Of a DNA stretch of 37,434 nucleotides, positions 5,673 to 15,169 are shown in pieces (within the stretch, counting starts at the first letter, position 1; every line of letters starts with the position of its first letter). Source of the stretch: Verrucomicrobiota bacterium (GTDB taxonomy: Bacteria > Verrucomicrobiota > Kiritimatiellia > RFP12 > UBA1067). The notes beneath the pieces are model-generated. The model was not told the DNA's origin, did not search any database, and was given only the letters and a program-made list of their open reading frames with translations. Position numbers and translations under genes: made by a program. The stretch lies in the NCBI GenBank assembly GCA_016288465.1, contig JAEEZC010000162.1:1-37434 (forward strand). Direction: 5' to 3'.

Positions 5673-6625
5673 GCGACAGCGTCTCCCCTGCGGCAGGCCG
5701 CAATGACCGACTCTATCTCGGCAATGGTGCGCACTGTGTTGAGGCGGGCGCGAAGAGCCGCCGCGCCCGGACGCCCGCTGAAATAGCGGAAGAGGTGCGT
5801 GTGCATCTTCACCGAGGCGTATCCGTCAGGAGACGGAAGGCGTGCACCAGGATAGCGGCTCACGAGCAGTTCGCGGAACTGGAGGATGTAGGAAAGATGG
5901 CGTTCCGCCACATCTACCGACGGAGTCGGCGTGACCGGCGCGCCCTTCAGCTTCGCGAATATTGCGGGGTCGCCAAGCGCCGCGCGGCCGATCATTATCG
6001 CGGCTACGCCTGTGCGGGCCATCGCATCGGCCGTGGCGCGACTGACGACGGATCCGTTGCCGGTAACGGGGATGCGGGAGCGAGCGACGACCTCGGCAAG
6101 CGTGTCCAGATGGACCTCGCCTCCGTGCATCTGCGACGTATAGCGGGCGTGAACCGCGACGCCCTTTGCGCCGGCCTTTTCAGCCGCATCCACGATCTCG
6201 AAGACCGTTGTCCAGCCCGGGCGCGGCCCAAGGCGCGTCTTGAGCGTCACCGGGAGCGGCGTGTTTTCGGTCATCGCCTTCAGCAGACGGTATATCTTCT
6301 CAGGATCCTCCACAAGCTTCGCGCCGGCTCCCTCGCGCGTGACCTTCGTCATCGGACAGCCCGCGTTCAGGCCAATCTCGGCAAAGCCGGAAGGAATCGT
6401 CCTAACTGAATACGCAAGCTCATCCTCCTTGGCGCCGAACAGCTGCACGGCGGTCGGGCCCTCGCCAGGCATGGTCTCCATCAGCCGCCGAGTGGGCTCC
6501 GAGCCGTGGGCCAGCCCAGCCGCCGAGACCATCTCGGTGTACACGAGGTCCGCGCCGCCCTCTCGGCACAGGCGGCGGAACGGCGCGTCGGTGAACCCGG
6601 CGAGAGGCGCGAGAACGAACTTCAT
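5669..6625 (-). CDS. dus: tRNA-dihydrouridine synthase (DusB-like)
   Basis: LAPLAGFTDAPFR, YTEMVS, VQLFG, LNAGCP, VTLKTRLG, AVHAR, GNG, IMIGRAALGDP. True start ATG 6625 (ATGA overlap). Confidence 0.93.
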   Translation of the reverse strand: MKFVLAPLAGFTDAPFRRLCREGGADLVYTEMVSAAGLAHGSEPTRRLMETMPGEGPTAVQLFGAKEDELAYSVRTIPSGFAEIGLNAGCPMTKVTREGAGAKLVEDPEKIYRLLKAMTENTPLPVTLKTRLGPRPGWTTVFEIVDAAEKAGAKGVAVHARYTSQMHGGEVHLDTLAEVVARSRIPVTGNGSVVSRATADAMARTGVAAIMIGRAALGDPAIFAKLKGAPVTPTPSVDVAERHLSYILQFRELLVSRYPGARLPSPDGYASVKMHTHLFRYFSGRPGAAALRARLNTVRTIAEIESVIAACRRGDAVA

Positions 6626-8211
6626 CGGCCCTTGCCAGAGACCGGCTTCAGACCCGCCGGAGGCGTCAGCGCCGGATCGGAGTAGGGCGCGGAGCGATCC
6701 ATGCGGGCAAACGACACATAGCTCGGCACACCCCAGCCAGTGCCGTCTGCGCGGCCGAAGACCGCGATGTCCACACGGTTGACGGGCGACATGCGGGTGC
6801 GGTCGATCGTGACGCGCGCGGCGTCCGCGCCGACAGGCTCTATCCTGACGTCCACGTCGGCGCCGTGCGTCTTCACGAAACGGTACTCCGCGGCCCCTGT
6901 CGCCCGTATCGTGAACACGCGCTTCACGTCGTCGGACCGCAGCACATAGGCCCACGCACAGCTGGAGCGGTACGTGAGCTCGGGCAGAGGAGGCGCTTCC
7001 TGAGGGGGCTGCACCTCAACCGTGATCGGCACGATCGGCGGAATCGCCGAGACCTGCAGCTCGGCGGCCGCCTTCATGAGCCTGTTGGTGTCCACGCCGT
7101 CCCTGGGCATCGCCGTCGGATGCGCGCGGACGGACGTGTACTCGTCCTCCGACGAAACGCCGCGCAGGCTCTTTCGCAGAAGCGTCATGATCGTCGGAGC
7201 GAGAAGGCCCCGCCTGACGGCCTCGCGCTTCACTTCCTTTCGAAGTGAGGCCGACGCCAGAAGGGACGCCCTAAGGTACGGCAGGTCGGACCAGCTGCGG
7301 CCAGCGGTCGTAAGCCAGTACGGCGCGATGGACGCGAACACGTCGCCGTTCGTCCCCACAGGCGGAGTGTCGGCGTTCGACGGGAACACCCACACCTGGT
7401 TCGAAAGGTACAGCCGCTCCATCGCCTTGAGCCTGTTCACCTCCGTCGTGAGAATCGCCCTCGGTATCGAACGCCAGAACGGCTTCTGCACAAACGCCAT
7501 CGACGAATTGCCGAACGTGGGGTACGGGAATATCACGTTAGGCACGTTAAGGTCGAGTCCGCGGCCCTGGCCGTCCGGATCGAACTTCACCTCCGTTATC
7601 CCCGGAAACTCCGACAGGAACTTCTTCTTCGCCTCGGGCCCCTTCGGCGAGTGGCCGCCGTCGCGGTTCATGTAGAGATCGCCCGTCCAGCGATCCGCGC
7701 CGCCTTCGGCGAGCTTCAGCCTCGCAATGAAGCAGCCGACATCGAAGTCCCACATGAGATTCTGCTCGCCGAGCGCCACGACGGAGCCGAATACGCCAGT
7801 CGCGTCGACAGTGGAAAGAGGACCGGATATCATCGGCCGCGGCCGCATGTACTTCGCGTACTCCACGAGCTCCTTGAAGCGCTTCTCGGAGGACAGCCGC
7901 TTGAGGTCGGTGTCGGCCGCTATCGCCTCGGGATTTCTGAAGCCGAGGTCTATCGCGAGCTCCAGCTCGTCCAGGGCCTCGTTCTTCCTCTTCGGAAAGT
8001 ACGCAAGCGCGCAGGCGAGGTTGAAATGCCACGTCGGATCGTCCGGCAGAAGCTTGACGCCGCTGCGGCATATGGCCTCCATGTCGGCGGTCTTCCCGCG
8101 TCTCACGGCAAGGACGAACTGATCGCGCAGCCGCTCGTGCTGCGGCTGACGCGCGGGATAGTCCCAAATGGAAAGGACCGCCAGTATCGCTGCAAACAGA
8201 TTCATTGTCAT
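6622..8211 (-). CDS. Hypothetical exported protein with N-terminal TPR-like repeat
   Basis: Hydrophobic N-terminus, then PDDPTWHFNLACALA...EALDELELAIDLGF......DTDL TPR/TPR-end motif. ATGA overlaps at both ends. Confidence 0.75.
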   Translation of the reverse strand: MTMNLFAAILAVLSIWDYPARQPQHERLRDQFVLAVRRGKTADMEAICRSGVKLLPDDPTWHFNLACALAYFPKRKNEALDELELAIDLGFRNPEAIAADTDLKRLSSEKRFKELVEYAKYMRPRPMISGPLSTVDATGVFGSVVALGEQNLMWDFDVGCFIARLKLAEGGADRWTGDLYMNRDGGHSPKGPEAKKKFLSEFPGITEVKFDPDGQGRGLDLNVPNVIFPYPTFGNSSMAFVQKPFWRSIPRAILTTEVNRLKAMERLYLSNQVWVFPSNADTPPVGTNGDVFASIAPYWLTTAGRSWSDLPYLRASLLASASLRKEVKREAVRRGLLAPTIMTLLRKSLRGVSSEDEYTSVRAHPTAMPRDGVDTNRLMKAAAELQVSAIPPIVPITVEVQPPQEAPPLPELTYRSSCAWAYVLRSDDVKRVFTIRATGAAEYRFVKTHGADVDVRIEPVGADAARVTIDRTRMSPVNRVDIAVFGRADGTGWGVPSYVSFARMDRSAPYSDPALTPPAGLKPVSGKGR

Positions 8212-9821
8212 CGCCTCAGCTTCATCCAACTCGGCAGCTTGACCATCTTGGCCTCGCGGCTCTGGTTCGTCTCCATCGAAGACACAGTGCCGATCGACGG
8301 AGACTCGAGCGACGCAAGCCGCGCCATGAGCGCCTGCTTGCCCATCGCCTCCCGCTGGCGGAGCTCCTCGCTGCGCTGGCGCTCCGACAGAAGGTCCTTC
8401 TCGGCGCGCTGCAGCGCCTCGCGAAGCCTCTCGGCCTCCGCGCGAAGCTGCGTCACGTCCCTCATGCTCTCGCCGAGGCGAAGGCACTCGGCGCGGCTTT
8501 CGCGCACCTGGTCGGAGAGCTGGCGCATTCTGGCGTCGTTGTCGAGCATGGCCTTCTCGTGCACGCGCTGGAGCTCCTCGTAGTCCCGCCTCAGTCTCGT
8601 GGTGCGCGGGTCCTCCGGCCTTTCGACAAGAGCCCTTCTCGTCATGTCCTCGAGGTCTCGTCCGCTCATCTTGAGTATGCCGCGGCGGCACTCCTGCAGA
8701 TAAGCCTCCCGCACCTGATAGCGCTTGCGGCACTCGTCGAACTCGGCCTTCTCGCGCTCCAGCGTCGCCGCTATCACCGCGGCTTCGTCCTGCATGATCT
8801 TGAAGACCGCGGCCTGGATGTCTGCGACCTCGCTCGCCGCCGCAGGAAGCCTCTTCAGCTCGTCCTCCAGCGCCACGACCTGCTCGGAGAGCTTCGCCGA
8901 CCTCGCCTCCGCATCCTTGAGCGCCGCGTCGCGTTCGGCGATTATCCCGTCCTTTTCGGCCGACTCCGCCGTCCTGACCTTGAGCTCCGCGTCGCGCTCG
9001 GCCACAAGACGCTCCTTTTCGGCCAGCTCCGCCTTCTTCGCCTCGATCTCCGCGTCTCTCTCGGCGATAATCCGGTCCTTCCCCGCGAGCTCGGCGACCC
9101 GGGACCTAAGCTCGGCGTCGCGCTCGGCAAGAGTCCTTTCCCTGTCGGCGATCTCGGCCGTCTTGGCCTTCAGCTCCGCGTCGGACTCGTAGAACAGCTT
9201 CTCGTTCTCTGCGGCCTCCGCCTCCTTGGCCTTCAGCTGCGCATCGCGCTCGACAAGCGTCGCCTTCAGCGCGGACGCCGTCTTCATCGCGTCGTCCATT
9301 CGCTGCTGCAGATCGACCGTATGCCGCCGCTCCTCCTCGAGAAGGCCCTCCAGCTCCTTTACGCGCGTATCGTCCACGACGACCTTCTCCACGACGCGCA
9401 CCTCCGGCTTCTCGGCGGCATCCGGCCTTTTCTCTTCGTCTTTCCCTTTGTCTTCCTTCTTGTCGTCGGAAGGCTGCGGCCCCTCCGCCTTCACGGGCGC
9501 TTCGGGCGTCTCCGGCTCAGGCGGCTCAAAAGGAGGGCGCACCTCCACCAGGCTAGCCGTCTTCGGCAGCCGCCCGCTCGCAAGAAGAGCGTCCGCGGCC
9601 GCCTTGTTGAACGGACCGCGTGGATTGCCGTCGCCTATGTCGATCGAGAAGCGCATGTCGAGAAACGGGACCTCCTCGACACGCGTCCAGACGACGTTGT
9701 CGTCCGACACCTCCTGCCCCGGCTGCACGCGGCCGAGCTTCGCCCACTCGACGAGCTTCGCCTCGGTCTCGGGGCCGAATGTCTCGTCCTGCGTCCGCAA
9801 ATACCACTTAGCTTCGCCCAT
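8208..9821 (-). CDS. Tandem GYF_2-like domains + long coiled coil with 21-aa repeats
   Basis: WYLR...TFGP....LVEWAKLGRV and RGPFN motifs, Pro/Glu/Lys linker, long heptad coiled coil. Confidence 0.8.
   Translation of the reverse strand: MGEAKWYLRTQDETFGPETEAKLVEWAKLGRVQPGQEVSDDNVVWTRVEEVPFLDMRFSIDIGDGNPRGPFNKAAADALLASGRLPKTASLVEVRPPFEPPEPETPEAPVKAEGPQPSDDKKEDKGKDEEKRPDAAEKPEVRVVEKVVVDDTRVKELEGLLEEERRHTVDLQQRMDDAMKTASALKATLVERDAQLKAKEAEAAENEKLFYESDAELKAKTAEIADRERTLAERDAELRSRVAELAGKDRIIAERDAEIEAKKAELAEKERLVAERDAELKVRTAESAEKDGIIAERDAALKDAEARSAKLSEQVVALEDELKRLPAAASEVADIQAAVFKIMQDEAAVIAATLEREKAEFDECRKRYQVREAYLQECRRGILKMSGRDLEDMTRRALVERPEDPRTTRLRRDYEELQRVHEKAMLDNDARMRQLSDQVRESRAECLRLGESMRDVTQLRAEAERLREALQRAEKDLLSERQRSEELRQREAMGKQALMARLASLESPSIGTVSSMETNQSREAKMVKLPSWMKLRR
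8910..9251 (-). repeat. 63-bp (21-aa, three-heptad) coding repeat, 5 full copies plus a partial sixth
   Basis: ERDAQLKAKEAEAAENEKLFY / ESDAELKAKTAEIADRERTLA / ERDAELRSRVAELAGKDRIIA / ERDAEIEAKKAELAEKERLVA / ERDAELKVRTAESAEKDGIIA / ERDAALKDAE. Confidence 0.9.
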
Positions 9822-10540
9822 CAGTGTTTCCTCCCGAAGAGACTGCCGACAAGACCGAACCGACGACGTTTCGCAAGCTCCTGCTGGGCAGCGGCCTCAA
9901 GGGCCATCAGCCTGGCGCGGTTGAGGCCGGCGAATATCCCGCCGGGCATCTTCGCAAGGGGCCGACGAGCCGCCGGCGCGAGCACCTCCGGCACTACGGC
10001 CAGGGCGGACTGGGCCCGCGGACGCGGCGCAGGGACCTCCACCACCTTCTCGACGACCCGCTCCACGACCTTCTCGACCGGCACCTCGACGCGGACTTCT
10101 TTCTCGACCACCCGCTCAACCACCTTCTCTACAGGCACTTCGACGATCTTCTCGACGACCCGCTCGACCGGCACCTCTACGCGGACCTCCTTCTCGACCA
10201 CCCGCTCGACGACCTTCGGCGGCGGATCCTCGTCCACAGGCAGCTCGTGCAGGGAATAGACCTTTGCGTCAGGCGACGCCGACCCGTCCTTGAAAAGGCG
10301 TATCACGAACGCGCGGTTGAACGGACCGAAGACGCGGCCGGGCTCCGGCTCGACGAGCCACTTCATCTCGAGCTCGGGCATGGCCGGCGCCGGAAACCAC
10401 TTGACGCGATCGCGGGAAAGCGAGCTTGTGGGCTGGATGCGGCCCTCCTTGGCCCATTCGGCAAGGGATGCAACGCAAGCCGGACCGTAGACGTTGCCGT
10501 CCTCGGCCTTCACATACCATTCGGCGCTTTCTCTCATCAC
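9821..10540 (-). CDS. Tandem GYF_2-like domains + VEKVVEVP repeat region + amphipathic C-terminus
   Basis: WYVK..DGNVYGP....LAEWAKEGRI and VFGPFN; repeat block KVVERVVEKEVRVEVPVE; ends KRRRFGLVGSLFGRKH. Start GTG 10540 or ATG 10537. Confidence 0.8.
   Translation of the reverse strand: MMRESAEWYVKAEDGNVYGPACVASLAEWAKEGRIQPTSSLSRDRVKWFPAPAMPELEMKWLVEPEPGRVFGPFNRAFVIRLFKDGSASPDAKVYSLHELPVDEDPPPKVVERVVEKEVRVEVPVERVVEKIVEVPVEKVVERVVEKEVRVEVPVEKVVERVVEKVVEVPAPRPRAQSALAVVPEVLAPAARRPLAKMPGGIFAGLNRARLMALEAAAQQELAKRRRFGLVGSLFGRKH
10033..10216 (-). repeat. Low-complexity V/E/K/R/P coding repeat (alveolin/articulin-like)
   Basis: KVVERVVEKEVRVEVPVERVVEKIVEVPVEKVVERVVEKEVRVEVPVEKVVERVVEKVVEVP. Confidence 0.9.
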
Positions 10541-10545
10541 CCTCT

Positions 10546-10554
10546 ATTATACCA
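10546..10554 (-). promoter_or_regulatory. Extended -10 TGGTATAAT overlapping the RND stop codon
   Basis: Perfect TGnTATAAT, 5 nt before GTG 10540. Confidence 0.65.
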
Positions 10555-13501
10555 AAACGGAGGCCGTCTCGTCAGCCTTTCCCGGACGCCGCCCGCGCAG
10601 AAGGGACGCCAGCAGCCCGCCGAACAGCGCGTATCCCAGATACCCTCCGCAAAGCGCAATGCCAAGCGACCGGCTGCCCGCCGCGCCGGCGCCAGTCGCA
10701 AACGCGAGCGGCAGCGCGGTAAGCGCCGCAAGCAGCGGCAGAAGCGCCCTGGCGCGCGCCCCGGAGCCGCGGACCGGCAGCAGCGACATCGCCGTCGTCG
10801 TAGCGAGAAGCATCACGATCGCGTAGCGCGAATACACCGAAAGCGCCGCGCCCGTAACGCCAAGGGCCAGAAGCGCGCCCAGCACCGCCGTCACCGACGG
10901 CAGAAACGAGCGGAACGCGTTGCGCCAGCTCTCGCGGTACGCCACAAGCACCAGGTAGACGAAAAGGACCGCGAGCACAACCAGCCAGTTCTCCCCGCCG
11001 CTCGTCTTGAGCGACTCGTACGTAAAGCCCGCCCAGTCGTTGCGGAAGCCAGGCGAAAGCTTCTCCCGGCAGATTCTGACGACCTCGGCGACCGCCTCCG
11101 ACGTGGAGACGCCGGGCTTCGGAATGAACTGCTCCGTGCAGTAGAGGTACTGGTCGCAGCGGTAGCACGAGCGCGGCCCAAGCTCCTCCCGGCAGGTGAC
11201 GAGCGTGTCGATCGGCACCATCGCGCCGGTCTTCGACCTGACGTAAAGCCCGCGTATGTCGTCCGGCTTCGCGCGCCCGCTCCACTCGGACATCGCCGTG
11301 ACCCGGTTCACCTGCGTGCCGAGGTTGACGTCGTTGACGTATATCGAGCCCAGATTGTGCTGCAGCGCTGTGTATATGCTTGACATCGGCACCTTCATCA
11401 GCTCGCACTTAGCACGGTCCACCGAGACCCTCAGATGCGGCGTGTCGGTGTAGAACCCGCCCGTCACCGACTCCGCAAGGGGCGACTTCGCAAGCTCCCC
11501 GCGCATCCGAAGCACTTCGCGCGAGAACTTGACCGGGTCGTTGTCGCCGATCGACTGGAACAGCACGCACACTCCGCCCTGCGAGCCCATGCCCTTCACC
11601 GGCGGAATCCTCAGCACGAACAGCTCCGCCTCAGGGATGTCCGCCGCGATCTTCTGGATGCGCTTGCCGATCTCGTACGACGACTCGCCCGCGCCGCGCT
11701 CGCTCCAGTCCTTCAGCACGAGCAGCATCTTCGCCTGGTTCTCGCCGGAGCCGTTGATTATGCTCGTGCCGAGCAGCGTCGCGCACTTCTCGATGCCGCC
11801 AAGCGCGCGCGCCTCGCGGTAGACGCGCTTCATCACTTCGCTCGTGACCTCCATGGACGTGCCTTCGGCCGTCTTGCAGTCTACGTACAGAACGCCCATG
11901 TCCTCGTCCGGCACGAACTCCTGCGGAAGCCGCCCGGCAAGTACGTACGAAACGACAATGCAGAACGCCCCCAGCACCATCGCAACCAGAAAACCTGGTA
12001 AGGCGCCGAAGAAAGGACGATCCGATCTCGCGGTCTCGGGCTCCGCGGCGGGAAACAGCCTCTTCGCCGCGACCGGGACAAGAAGGAGCGAGCAGAACAC
12101 GGACGAGACGGCCATCGCCGCGAACACCGCCGAGAACTGACGGAACAGCACGCCCTGCACGCCTCCGCCGAACGCAAGAGGCAGCGCCGCGAACGCGACT
12201 GCCGCGCCGGCGGCAATCTGCTCAACGCCCGGCAGCCTTCCCCTGCGCACTGCCGCGATAGACCAGGCGGCCGTGCCTGCCGCAAACGCGACGGACGCAA
12301 GAAGCGCATAAAGCGCCAGAAGATTCGCCTGCATCCCGGCGACCAGCAGCGCCGTCGCCGCTATAAGCGTCGCGACAAGCGCGGACGCCGTCGAAAGGAG
12401 CGCCGCCTTGAGCGACCTGAACACGAGCAGAATCGCCGCGAACACGGTCAGCAGCGCTATGGCAAGCGCCATTGCGACGCCTCTCAGCGTCCTCACCATG
12501 TACTCCGTCGTGTCGTACGTCATGTCCCACGTCAGGTCCGCCGGAAAGTACGGCTCGAGCTTCTTCAGCTCGCTCTTCACCTCCGCCATCGCCTCAAGCG
12601 GATTCGCGCCCGGCAGAAGGTAGATGGAGATGTACACGGCCGGAGTCTCCTCGTAGAGGGACGAGTAGGAGAAGCCCTGCGGACCCTTCGCGATTCTCGC
12701 GACGTCCTTGAGGCGGACGAGTCCGCCGTCGGCGTCAGTCGCGACGATGATCTCGCCGAACTCCTCCGGCGACGAAAGGCGGCCCCTGGATATCAGCGAG
12801 ATGACGCGGGCCGTCGGGTCTTCGGAAGGCCGCGCGCCGACGGAGCCGAGCGACGCCTGCACGTTCTGCGCCTTGATCGCCGCGACGACGTCCTCCGTGT
12901 TCAGCCCGAGCGCCGCAAGGCGCTCCGGCTTCATCCACACGCGAACCGCGATCTTGTCGTCCTGCACCGTCGACTTGCCCACGCCGCCGACGCGCAGAAT
13001 CGCGGGGTTGACGACGCCGAACACGTAGTCGGCGACCTGGTCGTGCGTCAGCTTGCCTCCCGGCGAGCGAAGCGTCAGTATGCCGAGCTCCTCCGTCGTG
13101 CCGCTCTCGACCGTGACGCCGGTGTTCTTCACCTCCTGCGGCAGCAGGGACTGCGCCTGCTGCACCTTGCTCTGCACCTTCATCAGCGCGAGGTCGCGGT
13201 CGTAGCCCACCTCGAAGTTGACCGTCAGCGAGTACGCTCCGGAGTCGTAGCAGCTGCTCGTCATTCGGTCCATGCCCTCGACGCCGTTGACCTTCTCCTC
13301 TATCGGCCCCGCGACCGTGTTCATCACCTCCGCCGCGCTCGCGCCCGGATACGAGCACGACACCGATATCGCCGGCCTCGCGAGAGTCGGATAGAGCGCC
13401 ACCGGCAGGAACGGCACCGATATGGCGCCTACAAGCGTCGCCACAAGGGCGATTACCGCGGCAAGGCGCGGACGCGCCACAAGAAATTCCGTCGCTTTCA
13501 C
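10547..13501 (-). CDS. AcrB/HAE1-type RND permease with degenerate transmembrane domain
   Basis: LPVALYP..ARPAISV...YPGASA, PIEEKVNGVEGM, RVWMKPERL, GRL....EFGEII...GGLVRLKDVARI, FVPDEDMG, YVND, GAMVPI. Start GTG 13501 (GTGA overlap with MFP). Confidence 0.9.
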   Translation of the reverse strand: MKATEFLVARPRLAAVIALVATLVGAISVPFLPVALYPTLARPAISVSCSYPGASAAEVMNTVAGPIEEKVNGVEGMDRMTSSCYDSGAYSLTVNFEVGYDRDLALMKVQSKVQQAQSLLPQEVKNTGVTVESGTTEELGILTLRSPGGKLTHDQVADYVFGVVNPAILRVGGVGKSTVQDDKIAVRVWMKPERLAALGLNTEDVVAAIKAQNVQASLGSVGARPSEDPTARVISLISRGRLSSPEEFGEIIVATDADGGLVRLKDVARIAKGPQGFSYSSLYEETPAVYISIYLLPGANPLEAMAEVKSELKKLEPYFPADLTWDMTYDTTEYMVRTLRGVAMALAIALLTVFAAILLVFRSLKAALLSTASALVATLIAATALLVAGMQANLLALYALLASVAFAAGTAAWSIAAVRRGRLPGVEQIAAGAAVAFAALPLAFGGGVQGVLFRQFSAVFAAMAVSSVFCSLLLVPVAAKRLFPAAEPETARSDRPFFGALPGFLVAMVLGAFCIVVSYVLAGRLPQEFVPDEDMGVLYVDCKTAEGTSMEVTSEVMKRVYREARALGGIEKCATLLGTSIINGSGENQAKMLLVLKDWSERGAGESSYEIGKRIQKIAADIPEAELFVLRIPPVKGMGSQGGVCVLFQSIGDNDPVKFSREVLRMRGELAKSPLAESVTGGFYTDTPHLRVSVDRAKCELMKVPMSSIYTALQHNLGSIYVNDVNLGTQVNRVTAMSEWSGRAKPDDIRGLYVRSKTGAMVPIDTLVTCREELGPRSCYRCDQYLYCTEQFIPKPGVSTSEAVAEVVRICREKLSPGFRNDWAGFTYESLKTSGGENWLVVLAVLFVYLVLVAYRESWRNAFRSFLPSVTAVLGALLALGVTGAALSVYSRYAIVMLLATTTAMSLLPVRGSGARARALLPLLAALTALPLAFATGAGAAGSRSLGIALCGGYLGYALFGGLLASLLRGRRPGKADETASVLV

Positions 13502-14706
13502 GGCGAGACGACCTTGACGGCCGCGCCGTCCTTGAGCTTGAACGCACCGAGCCCGACAATCTTGTCTCCGTCGGCAAGGCCCGCGGATATCCGGGAGACG
13601 CCGTTCCACTCCCCGTCAGTCTCGACGGCGACCGGATGCGCCCTGCCTTCGGCGTCGACCTTCCACGCCTGCAGCCCTTCGTCGGTCCGCACAAGCGCCG
13701 CGGTCGGCACCACGAGCGCGGCCGGCGGGTTGCGCTCGTCGGAGAGCACGCGCACGAACGCGTTCGGCACGAGACGGCCTGCCGGATTGTCGAAGCTGAC
13801 GTGCATCTTCAGCGTCGCCGTCTCGCGGCTCATCTCGTTGTCGCCGAAGTCTATCACGCCCTCGCAGCCGTACACCGTCCCGTCGGGAAGCCTCAGCCGC
13901 AGACGGCGCGAGTCCTTGAGCTCGCGGCCGCCCCGCTCCGCCGCCGCCTGCCATGCGTCGTAGTCGCGGTCGCTTATCGGGAAGACCACGCGGATCGGAT
14001 CCGTCTGCACGACGCGCGCAAGGGCGCTCTTGGACGGCGACACGTAGTCGCCGACGTGGTGCAGCGCCTTGCCTATGCGACCGGAGATCGGCGAGTAGAC
14101 CTTCGTGTGCTTGAGGTTGAAGTCGGCGATCGCCGCGGACGCCTTGGCCTGCTCGACCGCCGCGTTCGCCGCGTTGAGCGCGGCCTTGGCCGAGGCCAGC
14201 GTCGTCTCGGCCGTGTCGCGCTCGGTCGCCGTCACGCCGCGCTCGTCTGCGGACGAAAGGCGCTTGAAGTAGCGTTCGGCGCGGTCCACCTCGGAAAGCG
14301 TCACTGTGACCTTCGCCTCCGCGCTGGCGACCTCGGAGTACCGCAGGTTCCTGGCCGCGACATACTGCTCGTCGTCAATCTCGAAGAGGAGGTCGCCCTT
14401 CTCGACCTTCGCGCCCTCTGTGAAGCAGACGCGGCGGATGTACCCGTCGATCTGCGGCAGGATGTCCGTGACCTGCGCGGGCTCGACGTGGCCGACGTAC
14501 TCGGCCGGCGGATTGAACGCCGCGTTCGTCACCGAGACAAGCGTCACGGCCGGCGCCTCTGGAGCGCGCTCCTCCGAAGGCTTCGCCCTGAAGCCAACAG
14601 CGTCTCTCGCAAACCACCCTATCCCAACAAGCGCCGCCGCGACGACAAGCGCCGCACATCTGCCGGCGAAACGGACAGGCCCTCCCTGCATATTAGAACT
14701 AACCAT
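13498..14706 (-). CDS. RND periplasmic adaptor (MFP, AcrA/MexA-like)
   Basis: N-terminal TM; PQIDGYI...FTEGAKVEKGDLLFEID; alpha-hairpin; TKVYSPISGRIG; NPAGRLVP; VVPTAAL; GLADGDKIV. Confidence 0.92.
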   Translation of the reverse strand: MVSSNMQGGPVRFAGRCAALVVAAALVGIGWFARDAVGFRAKPSEERAPEAPAVTLVSVTNAAFNPPAEYVGHVEPAQVTDILPQIDGYIRRVCFTEGAKVEKGDLLFEIDDEQYVAARNLRYSEVASAEAKVTVTLSEVDRAERYFKRLSSADERGVTATERDTAETTLASAKAALNAANAAVEQAKASAAIADFNLKHTKVYSPISGRIGKALHHVGDYVSPSKSALARVVQTDPIRVVFPISDRDYDAWQAAAERGGRELKDSRRLRLRLPDGTVYGCEGVIDFGDNEMSRETATLKMHVSFDNPAGRLVPNAFVRVLSDERNPPAALVVPTAALVRTDEGLQAWKVDAEGRAHPVAVETDGEWNGVSRISAGLADGDKIVGLGAFKLKDGAAVKVVSP

Positions 14707-14713
14707 GCCGCAT

Positions 14714-14722
14714 ATTTTACCA
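14714..14722 (-). promoter_or_regulatory. Extended -10 TGGTAAAAT, leaderless MFP start
   Basis: 7 nt before ATG 14706; no SD. Confidence 0.55.
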
Positions 14723-14812
14723 AATCCTGCGCGCGGAGTGTAGTAGTGTCTAGACAGGTCTTTGAGACAAAGGGCCCTCGAAAGCTCAGCCGTCCCCTTG
14801 AACTTAACCCCT

Positions 14813-15169
14813 CCATAAATATATAGAGACACGTCTTTCTAACCCGACAAGACCCCCTTGAAGAGCTGGGGACGGAATGGCGGTAGGGGCCGAACTCCGG
14901 TCGGCCCGTAGCTCGACGGTGCCCCCTTTGCCTTATAAGCAGACCAGAGTCTTAATGGCCAGCCCGTCAGGGGCTGGCCGTTTGCATATATATATAGCCC
15001 ATAACCATGTGATTTTCATAAACAGGGTTCGCCCCCCTTTATCCCCCCATAAATATATAGAGACATGTCTTTCTTGTTTTACAACATTCGCCGCTTCGGG
15101 GCGATTCCGAACTTCCTCGGCGCTGGAGGACATTTCCGCCGAGGGCTGTCTCTAATATATTATGAGGGG
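14813..15169. repeat. AT-rich site in two direct copies and one degenerate inverted copy
   Basis: CCATAAATATATAGAGACAYGTCTTTCT at 14813-14840 and 15047-15074 (27/28 identical). Inverted variant TGTCTCTAATATATTATGAGGGG at 15147-15169. Confidence 0.85.
14883..14907 (+). repeat. GTAG-type REP-like palindrome
   Basis: GTAG followed by GGGCCGA-actccgg-TCGGCCC. Confidence 0.55.

Follow-up and report, generated by a model that had tools for sequence, protein, structure and literature searches.

A conserved pair of GYF-headed, rod-bearing proteins with an alveolin-type repeat from a gut bacterium of the Kiritimatiellia

In a stretch of 37,434 nucleotides (contig JAEEZC010000162.1 of assembly GCA_016288465.1; hereafter the window) from a Verrucomicrobiota bacterium (Kiritimatiellia; RFP12; UBA1067), two overlapping genes on the minus strand, here called A and B, encode proteins that each begin with a tandem GYF-like head, continue with a rod and end with a short basic and hydrophobic tail. 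These are read as a conserved two-protein module of cytoplasmic, non-enzymatic, rod-shaped and dimeric adaptor or scaffold proteins, a reading to which we give an even chance of being right. It builds on features that are established: the architecture of both proteins, the conservation of the pair across the order, the coupling of the genes, the replacement of one type of rod by another, and the two-residue periodicity of the valine-rich repeat that stands in the place of a coiled coil in A.

The gene pair and its products

The preliminary description of this DNA had reported two open reading frames with a TGATG overlap at 9821, and they are present as such on the minus strand. At the junction (CAC TGA TGG GC) the stop codon TGA of A and the start codon ATG of B have one base in common, and a second overlap, ATGA, joins the TGA of B to the ATG of a third gene. 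The two genes and the parts of their products are as follows.

9821..10540, minus strand: gene A, 239 amino acids from GTG at 10540, more likely 238 amino acids from ATG at 10537; tandem GYF head, V/E/K/P repeat, proline-rich linker, conserved helix and basic-hydrophobic tail
10370..10519, minus strand: first GYF_2 unit of A, residues 8-57; 26.1 bits with Pfam GYF_2 (cut-off 25.8)
10241..10369, minus strand: second GYF-like unit of A, residues 58-100; strands 59-66, 69-75 and 93-96 and helix 76-85 in the AlphaFold2 (AF2) model
10028..10225, minus strand: V/E/K/R/P repeat of alveolin type in A, residues 106-171; exact EKIVEVP at 10133-10153
9920..10027, minus strand: proline-rich linker of A, residues 172-207; 6 prolines in 36 residues, with a VVPEV...P element
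9854..9919, minus strand: conserved helix of A, RARLMALEAAAQQELAKRRRFG, residues 208-229; helical in the AF2 model, family motif LE.(A/Q)A..EL
9824..9853, minus strand: tail of A, LVGSLFGRKH, residues 230-239; with the preceding RRRF it makes up a basic-hydrophobic C-terminus
8208..9821, minus strand: gene B, 537 amino acids; tandem GYF head, acidic proline-rich linker, segmented coiled coil and conserved tail
9537..9821, minus strand: tandem GYF head of B, residues 1-95; 26.4 bits with Pfam GYF_2 (cut-off 25.8)
9372..9536, minus strand: linker of B, residues 96-150; disordered and acidic, with 10 prolines in the first 40 residues
8304..9371, minus strand: coiled-coil rod of B, residues 151-506, about 350 residues
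8211..8303, minus strand: tail of B, residues 507-537; disordered, ending in SREAKMVKLPSWMKLRR

One natural variant (position 10538) turns the GTG of A into GTA, and the database twin P0003 begins one codon later; the start of A is therefore probably the ATG at 10537, giving 238 amino acids, instead of the GTG. Contigs from two other studies span 8837-10687 (14 differences) and 8809-10574 (18 differences) without gaps, and thus the repeats are not an assembly artefact. Across sequencing runs, 28 coding differences are listed, 21 of them synonymous and 7 non-synonymous, which indicates purifying selection. The runs that hold the stretch come from 11 studies and are mostly labelled bovine or sheep gut metagenome, and the host genome assembly (3.5 Mb in 393 contigs) is 82.6% complete. 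Database proteins matching at E<=0.001 number 1284 for A and 1731 for B, and the features of the two proteins are no product of chance. Those homologs that carry names are proteins of metagenome-assembled genomes entered as 'Kiritimatiellae bacterium', annotated as DUF4339 domain-containing or hypothetical.

Conservation across the order

A and B are each matched in 39 of 41 genomes, the host included, covering all 24 genomes of the genus and 13 of the 15 genera. The pair is also kept together, as had been anticipated: according to the hit positions in the genome search tables, A-type and B-type genes are adjacent in 23 of the 24 genus genomes and lie on two contigs in the remaining one (G005). 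Among 16 genomes of other families, 11 have two adjoining GYF-headed genes, two have one match, one has them on two contigs and two have none. At the 13 loci fetched, no other gene family is common to different families, save a Dus gene in two lineages. A class-wide search with B matched 52 of 81 genomes; outside the order these were mostly matches to the GYF head, and they were left out of the family definition. Few unexplained gene modules are as well conserved as this pair in its group, a large set of gut and rumen bacteria of the Planctomycetes-Verrucomicrobia-Chlamydiae (PVC) superphylum, most of them uncultured, the cell biology of which is little known.

The tandem GYF head

The heads of A and B are 38% identical across 81 residues (E 2e-16), and the tandem GYF_2-like head that had been proposed for both proteins is borne out by Pfam GYF_2, which lies just above its cut-off in each, and by the predicted fold. 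In the AF2 model of A, built with a 36-row alignment, the head consists of two successive beta-beta-alpha-beta units packed compactly, with block values of the predicted local distance difference test (pLDDT) of 94-97 over residues 11-90. The first unit, which a genome profile scan also matches to GYF_2 at 10370-10519, reaches 96-97, and the second 94-96 (residues 51-90) and 82 (residues 91-100). In B the order of strands and helix is as in A (pLDDT 81-90 over residues 11-90), and the beta-beta-alpha-beta order of the GYF fold is accordingly predicted for both heads. The best PDB matches of a Foldseek search with the A model are GYF domains, namely those of GIGYF1/2, GltJ (7z3c) and Smy2, at probabilities of 0.98-1.00, and a sequence search of the PDB with the A profile gave best E values of only 0.15-0.56. 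Among 36 family members, GYF_2 matches all at E<=1 and 35 at E<=5e-4; in P0126, a homolog of B, it matches the equivalent of the second unit (residues 64-88) at E 5.4e-4, below the cut-off.

Neither protein has an enzyme domain in Pfam or NCBIfam, and the latter gave chance-level coiled-coil matches for B and none for A. A search with PADLOC found no defence-system match for A, B or the third gene. The earlier statement that neither protein has an obvious transmembrane segment agrees with the maximal Kyte-Doolittle means over 19 residues, which are 0.88 for A and 1.05 for B and reveal no membrane-spanning stretch.

Exchange of the rod between coiled coil and repeat

Two kinds of rod are found between the same flanking domains of A. 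In other families, A-type proteins have the same head and the same C-terminal module with a coiled coil of about 120-200 residues between them and no V/E/K repeat. This C-terminal module consists, across the order, of a V..PEV..PP element followed by a helix, L..LE.QA..EL. The VVPEV...P element of the A linker is retained across much of the order, and the helix motif is found in 11 of 12 order-level A-type proteins; in the A model the helix has block pLDDT values of 81 and 91 over residues 201-220, and L214, E215, A218 and E221 are invariant in 36 sequences. The coiled-coil form also occurs in two genera of the same family, g71 (G119) and g16 (G107), and in one species of the same genus (G156). 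That a coiled coil and a V/E/K/P repeat take the same slot between the same domains is the strongest argument for regarding the repeat as a pairing rod and not as a loose linker. The preliminary description had counted absence of the repeats from orthologs as a refutation, and absent they are, the coiled coil standing in their place in other families, in g71 and g16 and in G156.

By sequence comparison, the repeat is not ancestral in A, its place being taken by a coiled coil outside two genera; it appears as a young, expandable element in a protein whose rod was ancestrally a coiled coil. In G119, G145 and G156 the repeat is located in B, between head and rod. Most genomes of the genus have it in both proteins, with 28-143 residues in A and 26-51 in B, and relatives of B carry 26-65 residues of full VEKIVEVPVEK repeats where B of the host has a vestige. 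The host has 66 residues of the repeat in A and, after decay, 10 in B. Most likely, it arose in the linker of B and then replaced the rod of A. All 76 non-redundant homologs of A from the database search have the repeat. This account of its range is based on reading the proteins and not on genome searches, because a search with the IMCp profile (1 of 61 genomes) missed the host's own gene and, with the 69-residue repeat as the query, only two of four other genus genomes gave a match, so that both are unusable for absence.

The rod of B is a coiled coil. Its AF2 helices span residues 151-320, 331-386, 390-399 and 405-506, and the first long helix contains four 21-amino acid repeats of three heptads each (63 bp in 4.3 copies, 8915-9183). 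These repeats, the long coiled coil and a vestigial EVRVVEKVVV had all been noticed before and are all found, the vestige at residues 140-149 (9375-9404). The last 250 residues or so of B can be aligned across the order. A segmented coiled-coil rod between head and tail is the layout of intermediate-filament-like proteins, a term that describes architecture and does not define a homology family. A look-up of residues 300-537 of B in the Atlas returned generic coiled-coil look-alikes only (best 0.90).

Nature of the repeat and its occurrence elsewhere

The repeat of A, put at about 60 amino acids in the preliminary description, has 66 residues (28 V, 16 E, 7 K, 6 R and 7 P) following the pattern VEK[VI]VE..VEVP, with a single exact EKIVEVP at residues 130-136; in the DNA, a 90-bp unit is present in 1.9 copies (10050-10217). 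In the 36-member alignment, recurrence of residues is 0.59 at lag 4, high at all even lags and 0.04-0.06 at every odd lag, a signature of extended two-residue (beta) periodicity and not of heptads. The spacings between prolines are all even as well: 12 (48 times), 18 (45 times), 14 (39 times), 16 (15 times) and 8 (8 times). On such a strand each face would alternate valine with a charged residue.

Plasmodium alveolins are described, in the relevant passages of two papers, as carrying the EKIVEVP heptad within 12-residue repeats (PMC12465100, PMC4303705), and one of these reports that alveolin domains lack structure on their own and, when AlphaFold-Multimer models them with a partner, form a twisted beta ribbon (PMC12465100). 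Here, the one exact heptad is accompanied by many variants, and spacings of 14 and 18 are about as common as 12. Residues 105-192 are unstructured in the AF2 monomer, with pLDDT of 39-47. The alveolin profile of Pfam, IMCp, gives 15 bits over residues 109-170, below its cut-off of 21.1, and thus of the two Pfam families suggested earlier for this locus GYF_2 is upheld and IMCp is not. Among the 36 family members, IMCp matches 21 at E<=1 and six at E<=5e-4 (best E 8.1e-9).

A search of 1.84 billion cluster representatives with a 69-residue query found the repeat in 227 proteins at E<=0.001 and in 60 at E<=1e-10. A Pfam scan of 68 of the best 150 matches placed it beside GYF_2, beside the eukaryote-type Mcp5_PH, EF-hand, Kelch, PDZ and Filament (the last below its cut-off), and beside the bacterial-type HHH_5/DUF4332 in six proteins and ZapA in one. 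In the last of these, P0287, a ZapA head is followed by about nine VEKIVEVPVEK units and then by a short terminal segment. A hydrophobic N-terminus and long arrays of VEKIVEKRVEVPVDR are found in P0242 and P0253; P0242, which is encoded on a 1.85-Mb contig, also has helix-hairpin-helix (HhH) domains. In G156, a 348-amino acid protein (L043:2006-3052, minus strand) has a signal-peptide-like start, a looser V/E/P repeat, a short coiled coil and a match to LptA/LptD_N (E 4.3e-9), a case of a similar repeat in a periplasmic protein. That unrelated bacterial proteins carry the same repeat as A, with an anchor or head on one side and a further domain on the other, argues for a general rod or spacer module and not for a mark of membrane skeletons.

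It is tempting to go further and to regard the EKIVEVP-type repeat as a general, independently evolving building block of bacterial cell architecture, a self-pairing beta-ribbon rod able to replace coiled coils, with the protist alveolin as one instance and the A/B pair as a submembrane scaffold built on it. This proposal draws on the replacement of the coiled coil of A, on the ZapA fusion and on the proteins with anchor, repeat and HhH domains. It is tentative, and we would sooner expect it to fail than to hold; if true, bacteria and protists would both make use of the principle that the alveolin domain embodies. Repeats of the alveolin and articulin kind count as a hallmark of the membrane skeletons of protists, and no structure has yet been solved for them. 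The bacterial repeat sits between well-folded domains in small proteins, which could provide an expressible model for pairing, stiffness or length, and the close relatives with a coiled coil in the same slot amount to a natural swap experiment.

Homodimer model, tails and proposed mode of action

Modelled in two copies, A reaches a score of 0.73 (0.72, 0.74 and 0.73 in the individual runs), whereas the best of three controls is 0.00. A score of 0.73 was attained by 20 of 30 proteins solved as same-chain pairs and by one of 23 solved as single chains. Contacts agree between runs to at least 75%, with partner pLDDT of at least 69. The interface is formed in both copies by the second GYF unit (residues 61-103, with symmetric pairing of strand 93-98) and by residues 108-153 of the repeat, the contacts of lowest error being at residues 61-62, 70, 76-83 and 93-103. 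A is thus predicted to form a homodimer, a conclusion supported by the model only.

The C-terminus of A is KRRRFGLVGSLFGRKH and that of B is KMVKLPSWMKLRR, the latter finishing VKLPSWMKLRR. A hydrophobic-Phe-Gly-basic end is present in 8 of 12 order-level A-type proteins, and among 12 B-type proteins of other genomes 10 retain a W[ML].L[KR] end. The helical moment on the Fauchere-Pliska scale is 0.32-0.46 for the tail of A, 0.41-0.45 for the last 8-9 residues of B and 0.41 for the MinD motif to which the tails had been likened, and their net charge of +3 to +4 is similar to that of the motif. Both tails are of low confidence in AF2. Membrane binding by the tails is plausible in view of their composition, position and conservation, not of a pattern in their residues.

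By analogy with GltJ, the double GYF heads would bind proline-rich peptides; proline-rich segments lie beside the heads in both A and B, and contacts between head and linker may be made within or between the two proteins. The rods would set a distance and dimerise. In A, the repeat together with the second GYF unit is modelled as pairing chain to chain into a parallel homodimer, and the rod of B is presumably a dimeric coiled coil. The repeat may act as an alveolin domain does, as a self-pairing beta ribbon that serves as a rod, which would not make the proteins alveolins. At the far end, the basic-hydrophobic C-terminal element may hold each protein to the membrane, on its inner face, or to a partner that the two have in common.

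Alternative explanations

Several observations weigh against the reading of A and B as dimeric rod-shaped adaptors or scaffolds. The GYF_2 scores of A and B exceed the cut-off by only 0.3-0.6 bits, and the Foldseek matches to GYF domains have E values of only 0.02-0.1, none reaching 0.001. The dimer score is the model's own confidence, and its calibration is only rough since an alignment of our own was used. The length of the repeat, about 27-160 residues among the 76 homologs, implies no fixed length of the rod. In 4 of 12 order-level A-type proteins the A tail is absent, and shuffling of the last 22 residues reached the observed maximal moment in 1417 of 2000 and 1500 of 2000 cases, so that the tails are no more amphipathic than shuffled sequences. 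No match was obtained in two genomes of the order whose completeness is 92% and 93%. As to expression, the sole RNA hint for the locus is one 257-nt contig in a sheep-gut RNA library, identical to 8147-8403 (the 3' end of B and the start of the third gene), and DNA may be present in such libraries; a second RNA sample gave mostly fragments at 90-95% likeness, probably from relatives.

The preliminary description had named a candidate membrane skeleton. In a true skeleton of this kind, A and B would polymerise into a continuous submembrane lattice giving support or shape, as alveolins, articulins and epiplastins do. The exact EKIVEVP and the IMCp matches in 21 of 36 members, down to E 8.1e-9, speak for such a lattice, as do the self-pairing of A in the model, the rod of B, segmented as in intermediate-filament-like proteins, and the basic and hydrophobic character of both tails; the alternation of valine and charge on both faces of the modelled strand could even allow lateral stacking. 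Most orthologs of the order nevertheless lack the repeat, for which a coiled coil can stand in; it is short in the host (66 residues in A and 10 in B), and it serves as a spacer in unrelated bacterial proteins. Furthermore, the assembly modelled is a dimer, the support of the tails for membrane binding goes no further than composition, and the host encodes two MreB-type proteins and an FtsZ-like one (below cut-off) for shape and division. A lattice of this kind is therefore improbable; what stands of the earlier scaffold idea is the coupled pair without an enzyme domain, the head-rod-tail architecture and the homodimer model of A, and what goes unsupported, with the exchangeability of the repeat, is the membrane skeleton. 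At the other extreme, the repeat could be no more than a spacer, flexible or stiff, with a role like that of the Glu-Pro/Lys-Pro stretch in TonB; it would not self-associate and would resemble alveolins by convergence of low-complexity composition, the proteins being simple tethers or adaptors that owe their oligomeric state to other parts. Its lack of structure in the monomer model (pLDDT 39-47), its highly variable copy number and its wide occurrence fit a spacer: among the 227 representatives at E<=0.001, the 68 scanned show many unrelated contexts, and the repeat stands between a ZapA head and a terminal helix, between a membrane anchor and HhH domains, and, in a looser V/E/P form, after the signal peptide of an LptA-like protein. 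A spacer does not, however, account for the low-error contact between residues 108-153 of both copies, with the three controls at 0.00, nor does it require the order seen in the strict even-lag periodicity, and the repeat took the place of a coiled coil, which is a dimerising element. We hold the spacer to be unlikely, while granting it appreciable weight.

As ciliates are abundant in the ruminant gut and the organism is known from ruminant gut samples (runs of 11 studies), the repeat might also have been acquired by transfer from an alveolin gene of a rumen ciliate, in which case A and B would in part be true alveolin homologs; the repeat does reach E 2e-38 against a 1017-residue protein in which IMCp is the only domain. 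Low-complexity repeats, however, score high without common descent. The region has a G+C content of 0.66-0.67, like its flanks, and no eukaryote-like flanking sequence; the repeat arises within a bacterial gene between bacterial domains, and it occurs in other bacterial architectures on contigs of bacterial size, for example one of 1.85 Mb. Transfer from a ciliate is hardly credible on these grounds, and the conserved module of dimeric adaptor or scaffold proteins is the reading retained.

Relation to known systems

The module combines known kinds of protein part: a GYF adaptor, a coiled-coil-rich scaffold and an alveolin-type repeat. For the first of these, passages of PMC11135422 describe binding of the GYF domain of GltJ to a proline-rich segment of the coiled-coil protein AglZ, and an N-terminal GYF domain followed by a membrane-associated module in most bacterial GYF proteins. 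GltJ and AglZ belong to the gliding focal-adhesion platform of Myxococcus xanthus, where a bacterial GYF domain likewise lies at the N-terminus of a cytoplasmic region and its partner combines a long coiled coil with a proline-rich segment; GltJ 7z3c is the third-best Foldseek match to the head of A (E 0.029, probability 1.00). In contrast to GltJ and AglZ, A and B have no zinc ribbon, transmembrane part or receiver domain of the AglZ type, and the GYF unit is doubled, with head and rod in one chain. A zinc ribbon-GYF switch of the GltJ type is not indicated, neither a zinc-ribbon match nor a hydrophobic span being found. Bacterial GYF function has been studied in one case, GltJ-AglZ, to which the pair adds a doubled head joined directly to a rod.

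With alveolins (IMCp, PF12314) and the articulin and epiplastin group, A and B share V/E/K/P repeats with EKIVEVP, prolines often 12 residues apart and a paired ribbon in multimer models. They differ in that A is below the IMCp cut-off, that spacings of 14 and 18 are as common as 12, that the host is a bacterium without alveoli, and that in A the repeat took the place of a coiled coil recently and within a limited lineage. Articulin-like proteins are noted in Caulobacter and, in the passages concerned, are not localised there (PMC4303705, PMC6212826). They are likewise bacterial and have V/P-rich repeats of protist type, and as far as those descriptions go they are set apart by VYV modules and by having no GYF head, and no connection with Kiritimatiellae is mentioned. 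The control run made for the genome search with IMCp also matched Caulobacter vibrioides.

Crescentin and other bacterial coiled-coil-rich, intermediate-filament-like proteins consist of a head, a segmented rod and a tail. B shares this layout, whereas its head is a folded GYF tandem and no sequence relation was found with Pfam, NCBIfam or the Atlas. MinD and FtsA carry C-terminal membrane-targeting helices, and the tails of A and B are likewise short and basic with Phe, Leu or Trp; unlike MinD and FtsA, A and B have no ATPase or actin-like domain, and no deviant Walker A ATPase domain was found with Pfam or NCBIfam. The pair are not members of the alveolin family and not MinD-type proteins, because the defining features of both were looked for and are lacking.

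By title and abstract, supplements not being covered, proteins like A and B were not described in any of the papers listed. The papers listed for EKIVEVP concern apicomplexan parasites only, and nothing relevant by title or abstract was found on the function of DUF4339 or on a cytoskeleton of Kiritimatiellae. The sole bacterial lead in this literature is the remark on articulin-like proteins of Caulobacter, as far as the passages concerned go.

Neighbouring genes and genome context

6622..8211, minus strand: third gene of the coupled unit, 529 amino acids, hydrophobic N-terminus (MTMNLFAAILAVLSIW), without a Pfam or PADLOC family
10546..10578, minus strand: promoter-like site, CTGACG, 18-nt spacer, TG, TATAAT; 10 of 12 consensus positions match
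10547-14832, minus strand: resistance-nodulation-division (RND) efflux pair, an AcrB-type protein of 1020 amino acids and a membrane-fusion protein of 444 amino acids, directly upstream of A

No MinD gene was found at cut-off in the 82.6%-complete host genome. Two MreB-type genes are present, and an FtsZ-like gene (G000:C241:3543-5137) scores 107 bits, below the curated cut-off of 295, and adjoins an actin-like gene of FtsA/MreB type. The RND pump was not seen beside A at any other locus examined. Behind B, the third gene is found at all 14 loci of other genus genomes that are long enough to show it, 13 short ones and L042. It is not there in g71 and g16, and it thus accompanies the pair in this genus only; its look-alikes in the Atlas are TPR clusters (score 0.87), a lead only. 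The promoter-like site overlaps with a terminator-like hairpin in the last codons of the RND pump gene, directly before A; both are consensus matches only, and three promoter-like sites were found where 0.7 would be expected. The site ends about 6-9 nt before the start of A and would give a leaderless or nearly leaderless transcript.

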